A DNA stretch of 64,000 bases from a virus (IMGVR_UViG_3300025929_000012:1-64000); one strand, 5' to 3'. Positions 6,054-22,626 are shown, counted from the stretch's first letter. The notes: a model not told the origin generated them from the sequence alone. Translations and numbers: made by a program.

Positions 6054-7067
6054 GTGCCCTGGGCTCGCATCGATGACGGGTTCGACGATCACCCGAAGGT
6101 GCTCGCGCTTCTTGAGCACGACGACGGGGCCACCGCCCTAGGCCTGTGGACCCTCTGCTTCACGTGGGCGAACCGGAACACCCGCAAGAAGGGGAAGGTC
6201 CCGGGGCACCTCCCGGCGAGCCTGCCCCGCCGCTACCTGGGAGTCCTCGGGCGGGACGCGGCGAAACTGCTGGTCGACGTCGGGCTGTGGGACCCGGACC
6301 TGGATGAGGGCGGCTGGCGTATCCACGACTTCGCGCAGCACCTCCCGACGGCGGAAACAAGCTCGGCGCGGGCGGAGGCAGGCAAGCGCGGCGCCGCTGC
6401 CCGGTGGGGCAAGCAGGCTGAAACCCCAGCATCCGATAGCAAATTGCCATCCGGCGATGGCAAACCCGATGGCAGTCGCATAGCTGGCCATATGGCAAAC
6501 GATGGCAAATCCACGGGCACGGCGGAGGAGAGCCCGGCGGCCCCCGGGACGGGCACGGCGGATGGCTCCATGCCATCCGGCGATGGCAATTTGCTATCCG
6601 AGGATGGCAAATCCGATGGCCAGGCGATGGCAAGCGATGGCTCGCGCGCGCGTACCCAGTCCCATACCCATAAGAAGGTCAAAGTCAAAGACTCTGTGCC
6701 GGCTCCGCCGCCACGCGAAGACGTCGAACGACTCTGTGATCACCTAGCCAGCCGCGTCGAAGCCGGAGGCAGCAAGCGACCGGCCATCACCAAGGCATGG
6801 CGCGACGCCGCCCGCCTGATGATCGACCTTGACGGCCGGACCGAGCAGCAGGTCCACGACGCCATCGACTGGTGCCAGAACGACCCGTTCTGGCACTCCC
6901 GCGTCATGGCGATGCCGAAGCTCCGCGAGAAGTACGACCAGCTCCGCTTGCAAGCGATCGAAGAGCGGAAGAAGGCACGCCCCGGCGGCGGCCTCCAGCC
7001 CGGGGCGGCCGGGCACCCGAGGCAGGTCAGCTACAGCGACGAGGAGTACACACGTGGATGGCAGTGA
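6054..7067 (+). CDS. Phage replication initiator (Rep/O-like)
   Basis: PWARIDDGFDDHPKV N-term; C-term WCQNDPFW..MPKLREKYDQLRL; lies upstream of loader and helicase. Confidence 0.8.
   Translation: MPWARIDDGFDDHPKVLALLEHDDGATALGLWTLCFTWANRNTRKKGKVPGHLPASLPRRYLGVLGRDAAKLLVDVGLWDPDLDEGGWRIHDFAQHLPTAETSSARAEAGKRGAAARWGKQAETPASDSKLPSGDGKPDGSRIAGHMANDGKSTGTAEESPAAPGTGTADGSMPSGDGNLLSEDGKSDGQAMASDGSRARTQSHTHKKVKVKDSVPAPPPREDVERLCDHLASRVEAGGSKRPAITKAWRDAARLMIDLDGRTEQQVHDAIDWCQNDPFWHSRVMAMPKLREKYDQLRLQAIEERKKARPGGGLQPGAAGHPRQVSYSDEEYTRGWQ
6435..6642 (+). repeat. Iteron cluster, likely replication origin within rep
   Basis: About 10 (G)ATGGC(AA) copies in both orientations, including TGCCATCCGGCGATGGCAA twice. 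Confidence 0.65.
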
Positions 7068-15255: not shown

Positions 15256-15502
15256 GGGCATGGCGTGCCGGGTCGTGGAGCACGACGACCAGACGCGGGA
15301 GCCGAAGCCGGGCGGCAGGGTGGAGGCCACGCTAGTGGAGCGGCTCACGGGACCCTACGTGCAGGTCCGGACGGGCAGGTGGGGGCGGATGAGCTTCTGG
15401 GCTGCCTCAGGCTGGGCGGCGTGGGATGGCCAGTTCCGGTGGCGGCTGTTGCCGGGGACCGGAGACGAGGCCGCCACGGCGGCAGGAACGGAGGCCCGGT
15501 GA
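15239..15502 (+). CDS. Hypothetical protein
   Basis: Fills the operon gap; GTGA overlap. Confidence 0.5.
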   Translation: MTVWAEGMACRVVEHDDQTREPKPGGRVEATLVERLTGPYVQVRTGRWGRMSFWAASGWAAWDGQFRWRLLPGTGDEAATAAGTEAR

Positions 15503-15948
15503 GCGACGCTGAGCGCATCCGCTGGGAGGAGAGTCCCCTCGGCATGACCGACGGCCACGTCGGCGGCGTTGAGGCGTGCCTCTTCTCGGTCTGGCAGCCC
15601 CCGCAGGCAAGCGGGGAGTGGGTGCTGACCACGGAGCTTCCCGGGATGGAGGGTACGCGCGTCTACGGGGATGACCCGGGGGAGCTGAAGGCGGAGGCGG
15701 AGCGGCTGCTGGCGAAGTTCACCGCTTCCCTCGCCGCGGTTTTCCCGGGTCACCTCACCGAGTCGCAGCGCTTCCAGGTGCAGGAGGCCCGCGACTGCCT
15801 CGGCACCTGGGACCTCGCCCGCGCCCCTGGCGTGATCAGCCGGGAGAGCGTCCTAGCGGACCAGGTGCGTAACCTGCTCGCCATCATCGATGAGGTCGTC
15901 CCGGCCGGGCCAACTGTTAACGATCATCACCAGGAGGGGAACCCATGA
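15499..15948 (+). CDS. Hypothetical protein
   Basis: RBS GGAGG; ATGA overlap with next gene. Confidence 0.6.
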   Translation: MSDAERIRWEESPLGMTDGHVGGVEACLFSVWQPPQASGEWVLTTELPGMEGTRVYGDDPGELKAEAERLLAKFTASLAAVFPGHLTESQRFQVQEARDCLGTWDLARAPGVISRESVLADQVRNLLAIIDEVVPAGPTVNDHHQEGNP

Positions 15949-16259
15949 GCGAGGCACGGATCGAGAGCGTCACCATCACTGCGGGGGACGATGAGCAGGT
16001 CTTCACCGTAGATCCTGAGGCCGGAGAGCCCCAGTCGGTCACGGTCACCATGGCCGGCGGCCGGAAGGTGACGGTGAACGCGGACGGGGGCCTTGGCCTG
16101 GAAGACGGCCGCACGGTCACCGTCGGCGCTGACGGGGCCATCCAGGTCGGGAGGCGCGCGAGGGCATCGGACCTGGGCGGAAAGTACGGCGTCAACCTCG
16201 GCCCCGGGGCGCGAGGCATCCAGATAGGCCCCGGCAACACCCAGGTCAACTCGTTCTAG
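15945..16259 (+). CDS. Protein with C-terminal RHIM/BASS3-like amyloid signalling motif
   Basis: Ends GKYGVNLGPGARGIQIGPGNTQVNSF; RHIM core IQIG; RBS AGGAGG. Confidence 0.75.
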   Translation: MSEARIESVTITAGDDEQVFTVDPEAGEPQSVTVTMAGGRKVTVNADGGLGLEDGRTVTVGADGAIQVGRRARASDLGGKYGVNLGPGARGIQIGPGNTQVNSF

Positions 16260-20983: not shown

Positions 20984-21075
20984 GGAGGGTCGGGGACGCG
21001 CTAATCCGGTCGGGATCGCACTGCTAATGCGGTTAGGGGGTGACCCCTTCCGGGGTTCAAATCCCCGATCCTCCG
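20984..21075 (+). tRNA. tRNA-Ser(GCT) with atypical D arm; probable attP region
   Basis: Acceptor GGAGGGT/ATCCTCC; anticodon arm TCGCA-CTGCTAA-TGCGG; long variable arm; T arm CGGGG-TTCAAAT-CCCCG; TAAACT upstream; about 110 nt from integrase stop. Confidence 0.75.
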
Positions 21076-21183
21076 CTCCTGACCAGGACGTTTGCTAAAG
21101 GCCACCCGGGCCGGGAAGCCCGCACGGAGGCCCGAAAACCTGAAAGCCCGCACATTGCCCGCACGCCGGTCGGCGGGAGGCGC

Positions 21184-22626
21184 TCACCGGGCATCCCGGC
21201 CGGCCTGCGGGATGACCGCCGCCGCCTCCTCCGCCATCGCCGCCGCGATGTCCGGGAACAGGTGCACGTACACGTCCTCGGTGAACGACGCGCGACGGTG
21301 GCCGAGCATCCCCGAGATGTAACTGGTGTCCTGCCCGGCGGCCTTCCGGTAGCTGGCCGCCCCGTGCCGGAGGTCGTGGAACCGCACGGGGGGAAGGCCG
21401 ATCCGGAACGCCAGCGTCCGGAGCCGCCGGGACGCCCACTGCCCCAGCACGCCCGTGCCGTCCTCATGGGTGAACACCCGCCCGGTGTCGGTCCACGCCG
21501 GCCCCCACGCCAGCCGCTCCGCCGCCTGCACCCTCCGCCACGCCCTCAGCGCCTTCAGCGCCCGCGCCGGGATCGGCACCTCCCGCATTCCCGCCGCCGA
21601 CTTCGGGCCGTCCCCGGCCTCGGTGTCCCGCACGTACAGGACCCCGGCGTCCAGGTCCACCTCCGCCCACGTCAGGCCGACCTCCTCGCCGCGGCGCAGC
21701 CCGACGTAGACCACCAGGCACCACAGGGCGAACAGCCGCTCGCCCTCGACCGCGTCAAGGAACGCCCCGGCCTGGACCGGGGTCCACACCATCACCGGGC
21801 ACGGGCGCAGCGCCGGCGACGCCCACAGGGCTTCCCGCTCCACCGTCGTCAGCCGTTTCCCCTTCGCCTCCTCCGCCTCCGCCTCCCGGCGGGCGAGGGC
21901 CGCGCGGAACGCCGCCACTCGCGGGCCAGTCCAGGCGATTGGCTTCACCTTCACCGCGCGGGGCAGCTCCGCGCCCTGGCACGGGCTGACGATGAACATC
22001 GCTGGTATCGCGGCGTTCATCGCCGCCCGGAACGGGGCGAACATCCTCGCGACCCGGGCGGGGGACAGTGGCCGCGTGTACTTCTTGCGCCGCTCCTCCC
22101 CCTCCGGCAGGACACGGCGGTCATCATCGGCGCGGGCGGCGATCATCCGGCGCAGCATCTCCGACGGCCCGGCGCCGGGGAGGAGCGACTGGCCGATGAG
22201 CATCATCTCCCGCATGACCTCCTCGACGTGCCGGCGGCGGACGTCGGTGACCCGCATGTGGCCGAGGGCCGGAATCCAGTACAGGCGGAACGCCTCGTCG
22301 TCGGTTTCCCGGGTCCGCTTCTTCTGGTTGACCTTGCCCGCCTGGTAGGCCCGCAGGTAGTCGGCGACCTTCAGCGCCCGGTCCGGTGCCCCCGCCCCGC
22401 CGCCGACCCGGGCGAGGACCGCGGCCAGCTCGTCCTCGGCGTCCTTCTTCGTGGGGAACGGCCCGCCGACGGGCTGCCTGCGCTTCTCCCCTGGTGCCTT
22501 GGGTGCCTCGTACCGGTAGTACCAGGACCCGTGGCCCTTCTTCTTCAGGTCCGGGCAGGCGGTGTGCAGCTTCTTCCCGGTTTCCGGGTCGCGGCACCAG
22601 CACTGCCGGTAGACGGTTCCCCTCAT
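21184..22626 (-). CDS. int: Tyrosine integrase
   Basis: GLRRGE, PKS, RFHDLRH, MLGH, DVYVH catalytic motifs. Confidence 0.95.
   Translation of the reverse strand: MRGTVYRQCWCRDPETGKKLHTACPDLKKKGHGSWYYRYEAPKAPGEKRRQPVGGPFPTKKDAEDELAAVLARVGGGAGAPDRALKVADYLRAYQAGKVNQKKRTRETDDEAFRLYWIPALGHMRVTDVRRRHVEEVMREMMLIGQSLLPGAGPSEMLRRMIAARADDDRRVLPEGEERRKKYTRPLSPARVARMFAPFRAAMNAAIPAMFIVSPCQGAELPRAVKVKPIAWTGPRVAAFRAALARREAEAEEAKGKRLTTVEREALWASPALRPCPVMVWTPVQAGAFLDAVEGERLFALWCLVVYVGLRRGEEVGLTWAEVDLDAGVLYVRDTEAGDGPKSAAGMREVPIPARALKALRAWRRVQAAERLAWGPAWTDTGRVFTHEDGTGVLGQWASRRLRTLAFRIGLPPVRFHDLRHGAASYRKAAGQDTSYISGMLGHRRASFTEDVYVHLFPDIAAAMAEEAAAVIPQAGRDAR

Follow-up and report, generated by a model that had tools for sequence, protein, structure and literature searches.

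A small phage protein with a predicted C-terminal BASS3 amyloid motif: a possible decoy of bacterial NLR signalling

BASS3 is a short amyloid motif by which filamentous bacteria relay a death signal from NOD-like receptors (NLRs) to membrane-killing Bell effectors; in actinobacteria it is located at the N-terminus of the former and at the C-terminus of the latter. BASS3 motifs form fibrils, and pairs of an NLR and a Bell effector that cross-seed in experiments share 43-56% identity (Dyrka et al. 2020, doi 10.1101/2020.01.06.895854). In Escherichia coli, the BASS11 motif of Bab/Agp, an amyloid motif of ~20 residues common to the sensor and the Bell-type effector, mediates antiphage abortive infection, and no phage-encoded carrier of the motif is described there (Ibarlosa et al., doi 10.1101/2024.11.07.622273). 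On the side of the viruses, the herpesvirus RHIM proteins M45 of murine cytomegalovirus (MCMV), ICP6 and ICP10 of herpes simplex viruses (HSV) 1 and 2, and ORF20 of varicella-zoster virus (VZV) form decoy amyloids with host RHIM proteins (PMC13506858). The subject of the present work is a gene at 15945-16259 of IMGVR_UViG_3300025929_000012:1-64000, a stretch of 64,000 nucleotides (the window) that represents the first 64 kb of a 110,328-bp IMG/VR virus (CheckV 100% complete, GC 70.7%). It encodes a protein of 104 residues whose C-terminal 26 residues are, to judge from their sequence, a genuine BASS3 (RHIM-like) motif and not a chance look-alike. By the same comparisons the tail has the layout of the effector side, since it ends at the stop codon and carries a GKY.V element upstream. 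The phage protein would probably plug into BASS3 signalling from NLR to Bell proteins, and jamming of that signalling is the reading developed here.

A 104-residue protein with this C-terminus had been proposed in the initial annotation, and the list of open reading frames (ORFs) and the translation bear it out, the ORF starting with ATG and its last 26 residues being exactly those quoted earlier. The gene is real, with a strong ribosome-binding site and a coding-type codon bias. The GC content amounts to 0.69, 0.51 and 0.87 at the first, second and third codon positions, as a real gene in DNA of 70.7% GC should show, while the antisense ORF has 0.54/0.70/0.80, and the + frame is hence taken as the coding strand. 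The ATGA overlap with the preceding ORF suggests translational coupling. In the protein a small beta-rich domain is joined by a flexible basic linker to the C-terminal BASS3 motif, and the whole should be cytoplasmic because it contains no hydrophobic segment. The features of the locus are:

15945-16259, + strand: coding sequence of the 104-residue protein, stop codon included (ORF list and sequence; codon-position GC; homologues share the start Met)
15932-15937, + strand: Shine-Dalgarno sequence AGGAGG, 7 nt 5' of the ATG, read from the sequence
15265-15948, + strand: upstream ORF, whose TGA overlaps the ATG of the 104-residue gene as ATGA
15954-16151, + strand: N-terminal domain, residues 4-69, with beta-hairpin-like repeats (D/G)G..V.V
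16152-16178, + strand: linker, residues 70-78, basic, with indels among homologues and a predicted local distance difference test (pLDDT) value <50
16179-16256, + strand: predicted BASS3-type (RHIM-like) tail, residues 79-104, formed by the GKY.V element, a Gly/Pro loop and the core
16215-16256, + strand: motif core, residues 91-104, fitting G-[VIL]-Q-[VI]-G-x-x-N-x-Q-x-N-x-F, its final residue directly preceding the stop codon

A set of cellular reference motifs was obtained by scanning a DNA pattern for that core over 185,579 species genomes, which gave at least 120 loci. Among the matches listed, nearly all loci belong to filamentous Actinobacteria or filamentous Cyanobacteria (Nostocales), the published range of BASS3, with Actinoplanes, Micromonospora, Streptomyces, Amycolatopsis, Nocardia and Nonomuraea among the genera. 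In these matches the motif is located at the C-terminus of an ORF in 99 of 135 instances, generally ending 0-2 residues before the stop; most of the ORFs carrying it there are ~120-145 residues long and start with a Bell-type 'MEPIS'-like N-terminus, and in 12 loci a long ORF opens with a second motif at a distance of ~100 bp, which makes them candidate pairs. Seven long ORFs with an N-terminal motif (five from paired loci, plus L063 and L088) were scanned for domains. NACHT or NB-ARC together with TPR or WD40 repeats was found in four (L048, L060, L082 and the unpaired L063, an NB-ARC-TPR protein), the related P-loop domain NPHP3_N in L021, TPR repeats only in L089, and no match in L088. The set contains Saccharothrix carnea, which is listed in Table S2 of Dyrka et al., and Nocardia fusca, whose BASS3 is experimentally fibril- and prion-forming. 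The consensus of that table is V-D-x-R-x-A-x-G-V-Q-[IV]-G-D-x-N-T-Q-x-N-x-F (Dyrka et al. 2020, doi 10.1101/2020.01.06.895854), and the phage tail fits it closely.

Scoring was carried out with a profile hidden Markov model (HMM) of 30 columns, built here from 98 distinct cellular C-terminal tails and distinct from the profiles of Dyrka et al. Against it the phage protein reached 29.7 bits (E 2.8e-5, with the database size set nominally to one million sequences). Among the 1982 stop-to-stop ORFs of the phage the runner-up had 7.9 bits, and 12 relatives of the protein obtained 10.8-30.6 bits, 11 of them at least 14.8. Circularity was controlled by rescoring on the 21 columns that the search pattern leaves free. 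On these the phage tail obtained 22.1 bits, more than any of the 92,116 control windows taken from the long ORFs of the phage (highest 17.8), and fell inside the range of true cellular tails (5th percentile 19.4, median 32.9). Most of this flank signal comes from the G-K-Y element, which is absent from the search pattern and sits 12 residues before the core; G[KR][YF] occurs 11-12 residues before the core in 46/98 cellular C-terminal tails versus 0/24 motifs of the NLR class (non-C-terminal). Alignment of the phage family with 28 Bell-BASS3 proteins by hhalign gave a probability of 97.4% (E 1e-11) over the C-terminal ~45 columns only, and a six-frame search of the 110-kb genome finds the core pattern a single time. 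The RHIM/BASS3-like character attributed to the tail in the initial annotation is upheld by the profile score, the flank-only score and this alignment. A resemblance of a Gly/Asn/Gln-rich C-terminus to BASS3 by chance or composition could appeal to the shortness of the motif and to the lack of a Pfam RHIM match, but with no other phage ORF above 7.9 bits and a flank score above every control it is hardly credible.

The family to which the protein belongs adds to this picture. Word-index and exhaustive phmmer searches returned a dozen homologues of 94-112 residues and a fragment of 55 residues, 42-88% identical; a copy of 61% identity is present on four IMG/VR contigs, and a 68-residue protein on a fifth viral contig (L126) is a shorter, distant member (hhalign 96%). 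In total ~17 homologues were found, all small, and those that can be located lie on viral contigs. No homologue without the C-terminal motif was found, the tail being kept in every full-length homologue down to 42% identity, which is a further point against chance. Four of the seven invariant columns of the family fall within the last 12 residues (Q93, G95, Q100 and N102), and the mean column conservation is highest in the core (0.77), above that of the head (0.68) and the linker (0.39). As all full-length homologues keep the tail and its core is the most conserved region, the tail is, on this comparison, under selection. Searches of the 185,579 species genomes, of 50,697 isolated-phage records and of metagenome contigs yielded no relative, and the family is seen on viral or metagenomic DNA only. 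The one match among isolated phages, gp92 of Mycobacterium phage Shandong1, is spurious and has no BASS3 tail. Megablast of the region against phage records gave no match, the word-index search with the tail alone recovered near-identical proteins only, and at the DNA level nothing pointed to the tail having been taken up recently from a cellular Bell gene. Within ~6 kb of four related viral loci only this gene matches any ORF of the phage, and it behaves therefore as a mobile accessory gene of otherwise different phages; in two of these four records, searched with a coarse first look, no match to the phage capsid was found.

The strict DNA pattern was also searched in 2.9 million viral contigs, where it gave seven matches against a chance expectation of far less than one, estimated from the information content of the pattern and a rough size of the collection. 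Four of the seven matches are C-termini of small proteins, located 0-2 residues before the stop (L126, L127, L128 and L130). The figures of seven matches and four near the stop speak likewise against a compositional origin. L126 is the distant family member mentioned above, and the proteins of L127, L128 and L130 look unrelated to the 104-residue family. A relaxed pattern recovered two further proteins. The carriers outside the family are:

L127:987-1445, + strand: protein with a BASS3-like tail, 0-2 residues between motif and stop
L128:11045-11404, - strand: protein with a BASS3-like tail, 0-2 residues between motif and stop
L130:77-853, - strand: protein with a BASS3-like tail, 0-2 residues between motif and stop
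L132:5431-5886, + strand: protein with a BASS3-like motif followed by 28 residues
L135:2644-3249, - strand: Rv2179c-like 3'-5' exoribonuclease, its BASS3-like tail separated from the stop by 2 residues (relaxed pattern)
L138:275-850, - strand: Rv2179c-like 3'-5' exoribonuclease, its BASS3-like tail separated from the stop by 2 residues (relaxed pattern)

The contigs of L127, L128, L130 and L132 have GC contents of 0.54-0.64, and two of the viral pattern carriers show sub-threshold matches to Pfam RHIM. The neighbours of the viral BASS3-like genes are small unassigned genes, an integrase (L127) and a SLOG-domain gene (L128), with no NLR near them, and a single strong copy of the motif is present in each of five other viral records. 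L135 and L138 are viral contigs of 77 and 105 kb with GC contents of 0.41-0.43, and may belong to phages of filamentous cyanobacteria. Taken together, it is possible, if doubtful, that effector-type BASS3 tails have been joined to unrelated heads several times over in phages that infect filamentous Actinobacteria, and perhaps also in those that infect filamentous Cyanobacteria. The heads of such an 'amyloid plug-in' class would be the beta-rich family, several small proteins and the Rv2179c-like exoribonuclease, and their role might be, with the same reserve, to intercept or exploit the NLR amyloid signalling of the host. Separately, an identical protein of 177 residues was observed on four viral contigs (L136, L137, L139 and L143; for example L136:4218-4751, - strand) with a GC content of ~0.35. 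It has a core-like GIQFG..NTQ.N at residues 8-19, with His-rich repeats later in the sequence; a protein of the tail-fibre type is conceivable, and the match to the motif may be coincidental.

Compared with the cellular BASS3 Bell/NLR pairs (Dyrka et al. 2020), the phage protein is alike in the core consensus, in the C-terminal end at the stop and in the GKY.V of many Bell-side tails, whereas its loop from GKY to the core is one residue longer and Gly/Pro-rich. Its identity to the best cellular tails is 15-16/29 (about 52-55%), within the range of the natural cognate pairs, which share 10-17/22. Because the two figures are comparable, the phage tail would be expected to be templated by an activated BASS3 NLR. 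The differences are that the head is beta-rich, unrelated to the helical Bell domain and without a MEPIS-type N-terminus, and that the gene is encoded by a phage, with neither an adjacent NLR nor a second copy of the motif. The initial annotation had noted that no NLR is encoded in the window; this extends to the whole 110-kb genome, which has no NB-ARC or NACHT match and a single copy of the motif. The BASS3 tail is an orphan in this phage, with no second copy and no partner encoded.

AlphaFold2, run on 13 sequences, modelled the head as seven short strands with no helix and left the tail unstructured, at low confidence (pLDDT 48.7). A beta-rich N-terminal part that is not a Bell domain had been proposed before; the first half of that proposal is consistent with the strands-only model, at its modest pLDDT, and the second with the alignment by hhalign to the 28 Bell-BASS3 proteins, which leaves the head out. 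The Pfam matches of the head are sub-threshold, to Tcp10_C in 6/13 family members (best E 8e-6) and to the SH3-like Myosin_N in 10/13. No enzymatic, membrane or toxic signature was found in the ~70 residues of the head by Pfam, PHROGs and PDB sequence searches; PHROGs gave no usable match for the 104-residue protein, and the PDB sequence profile search and the ESM Atlas gave nothing informative for the head. Two candidates were discarded: the long cadherin/Ig-repeat proteins matched by phmmer, which have only beta-strand repeats in common with the head, and a second IQVG at residues 66-69, considered as a second repeat, which is not kept as a RHIM tetrad in the homologues.

From these features a mechanism can be proposed. 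In an infected cell that possesses a BASS3 NLR, the receptor, once activated and oligomerised, would serve as a template on which the phage tail adopts the same cross-beta fold. The phage head, supposedly harmless, would take the place of the pore-forming Bell domain, and the phage protein would soak up or cap the template, so that the Bell effector would not be converted and abortive infection would be blocked. This decoy function, in which the phage tail competes with or caps Bell conversion, is given here slightly less than an even chance. In the HET-s/HET-S/NWD2 system of Podospora anserina the amyloid motif at the C-terminus of the effector is likewise templated by the N-terminus of an NLR, and HET-s is a natural variant with a non-killing head; that system differs in being fungal and not viral, in its unrelated motif and in its two-repeat beta-solenoid. 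With the herpesvirus RHIM decoys the phage protein shares the arrangement of a virus protein that carries a host amyloid motif on an unrelated domain. The proposed common principle is a hetero-amyloid that diverts death signalling, a function which for the phage protein is inferred; the motif family, the host domain and the size of the protein are different, and Pfam RHIM does not match the phage protein. Bab/Agp represents the type of pathway that the phage protein would meet, with a different motif (BASS11), host and type of sensor. Virus-encoded mimicry of an amyloid signalling motif is thus already known, and here it would occur in a phage and with BASS3. Full-text literature searches for phage-encoded BASS or RHIM-like proteins found none, and a phage-encoded BASS carrier is not mentioned in the BASS paper, the Bab/Agp preprint, a 2026 review of signalling amyloids or a 2025 review of fungal cell death.

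The initial annotation had interpreted the protein as a RHIM mimic that either jams or deliberately triggers the amyloid cell-death defence of the host. This interpretation is supported in part, its structural half holding at the level of sequence comparison. In the second alternative the phage tail would nucleate the conversion of host Bell proteins late in infection, aiding lysis or killing competitors. The sequence is compatible with templating in either direction, but the gene is grouped with early-type small genes and not with lysis or structural genes, premature death of the host harms the phage, and in the known systems the effector-side mimic is the templated party and not the nucleator, which makes a trigger very improbable. 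The placement in an early region is inferred solely from the position of the gene among small + strand genes near the replication genes.

Several observations weigh against the decoy function. The tail is a predicted amyloid-forming motif, and its fibril formation is likewise a prediction. The reference tails were gathered with a pattern derived from the motif, so that the flank test and the published table are the independent comparisons. Pfam RHIM (PF12721, 20-bit gathering cut-off) gives no match at E <= 10 for the 104-residue protein and matches 1/13 relatives, with E 0.2. Of the two profile matches foreseen in the initial annotation, that to BASS3 was obtained and that to Pfam RHIM was not; the latter result counts formally against the proposed mimicry, but as a detector of BASS3 the RHIM profile is weak, since only 17/28 bona fide Bell-BASS3 proteins reach E <= 1. 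Comparison with separate profiles for the effector side and the NLR side does not show which of the two the phage tail imitates, and the N-terminal domain obtained neither fold nor function from AlphaFold2, PDB sequences or the ESM Atlas. Prediction of complexes between NLR N-termini and the phage tail, with two copies of each and without controls, gave a score of 0.02, which speaks neither for nor against the decoy. As an observation on the Bell-BASS3 proteins themselves, Pfam EAD10 (Effector-associated domain 10) matches 10/28 of them below threshold at residues ~76-121, and seems to overlap the BASS3 region.

To the same side belong the indications on the host. The decoy function presupposes a host that uses BASS3, which is plausible; no cognate NLR or Bell protein is known. 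The main clue is a gene of the phage genome located beyond the window:

86529-88838 of the phage genome (L133:940-3249), - strand: FtsK-like protein of 769 residues

The motor domain of this protein most resembles chromosomal FtsK from a single actinomycete family (a cluster of 7-11-Mb genomes), with 78-79% identity; the identity is 76-77% with a Streptosporangiaceae metagenome-assembled genome (MAG) and with Nonomuraea, 73% with Kitasatospora, and 67-70% with Micromonospora, Actinoplanes, Dactylosporangium, Amycolatopsis, Pseudonocardia and Nocardia. The Streptomyces genome comes well below the top cluster (E 8.5e-163 vs ~1e-185). The sample compared also contained unpublished genomes, on which none of these statements depends. 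An identity of 78-79% is unusually high for a phage gene and points weakly to that family as a possible host lineage. The tRNA-Ser gene of the phage gives the same weak hint without an exact match, as no identical host copy was found in the samples searched (best 93% over 57 nt). In the family with the best FtsK, the strict BASS3 pattern is present in 2/151 sampled genomes, one of the two being unpublished, compared with 15/101 in Micromonosporaceae, and no convincing BASS3 was found in the five genomes with the closest FtsK. BASS3 pairs exist in Nonomuraea (L060 and L082) and in Streptosporangiaceae MAGs. The rarity of BASS3 in the family so indicated, and the fact that no partner is known, would suit a module of self-assembly with no link to host BASS3, in which a homotypic cross-beta polymer displays the beta-hairpin head for scaffolding or for sequestering a host factor; BASS3 motifs do fibrillise on their own. 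However, the match extends past a generic amyloid core to the effector-specific GKY.V flank and to the terminal position, and this type of motif is otherwise confined to NLR-linked signalling in the bacterial groups infected by such high-GC actinophages. Self-assembly of this kind is accordingly regarded as decidedly unlikely.

The last point against a decoy is the integration module of the phage:

20984-21076, + strand: tRNA-Ser(GCT), complete, directly beside the tyrosine integrase
21256-21753 (listed region 21184-22626), - strand: tyrosine integrase, adjoining the tRNA-Ser gene

The 3' 57-60 nt of the tRNA-Ser are 87-93% identical to actinomycete tRNA-Ser genes, which suggests an attP region, and since the integrase adjoins the tRNA-Ser gene the phage is probably temperate, which opens a reading on the side of defence that the initial annotation had left aside; a role that serves the lysogen would be as natural as counter-defence. 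The temperate phage would add an effector-side partner for a BASS3 NLR of the host or of a prophage. Once switched on by a competing phage, the NLR would template the tail, and the head would acquire an activity or a localisation that helps to exclude the intruder. Apart from the integrase next to the tRNA gene, the layout is in its favour: cellular effectors likewise carry BASS3 behind a domain and directly at the stop codon. Cellular BASS3 tails are also found on non-Bell proteins such as the ~420-residue proteins of Micromonosporaceae. Known effectors include hydrolase, TIR2, CHAT and cyclase domains (Dyrka et al. 2020, doi 10.1101/2020.01.06.895854), which counts in the same direction, as do the BASS3-like tail beside the integrase in L127 and that on the Rv2179c-like exoribonuclease in L135 and L138. 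Against it stand the head of ~70 residues without enzymatic, membrane or toxic signature, the failure to find any relative in prophages of the 185,579 species genomes, and the position of the gene among small genes near replication genes and not in a recognisable defence cassette. An effector in the service of the lysogen is considered fairly unlikely.

The decoy function would have consequences beyond this phage. The role of the Bell/NLR amyloid pairs in filamentous bacteria is unproven, E. coli Bab/Agp being the only system tied to phage defence, and a phage family that bears an effector-side BASS3 tag on a harmless head would be the sort of trace expected of an arms race. If the plug-in class exists, it would be the first counter-measure to amyloid-based immunity in prokaryotic viruses, and it would speak indirectly for an antiphage role of the actinobacterial Bell/NLR BASS3 pairs. 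The phage protein is a reagent with which to ask whether the NLR systems are antiphage and whether templating can be blocked by a competing substrate, and also whether bacterial viruses have an independent counterpart of the 'decoy amyloid' strategy of herpesviruses. The hypothesis is directly testable because the protein is small and easily expressed, and because validated BASS3 peptides and the Podospora prion assay exist.

In the surroundings of the gene, the neighbouring small + strand genes belong to no Pfam or PHROG family, and a scan for promoters and terminators over 9-21.5 kb gave nothing above shuffles. The window also encodes DnaB, a DUF3987 protein, HNH nucleases, large tail proteins and a capsid, the latter 35-41% identical to capsids of Rhodococcus, Gordonia and Mycobacterium phages and to that of one Microcystis phage. 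In a search of sequencing runs the full stretch was found only in its probable source sample, a microbial fuel cell metagenome, and other runs contained small shares of it. Among the cellular loci, the BASS3 core was also observed outside Bell and NLR proteins in Micromonosporaceae (L026, L030, L038 at 6451-6849 on the - strand, L043 and L077) and in L016, L017, L036 and L075: it ends ~420-residue non-Bell proteins that have a common conserved tail, and it occurs in the middle of ~450-residue proteins, also of Micromonosporaceae.

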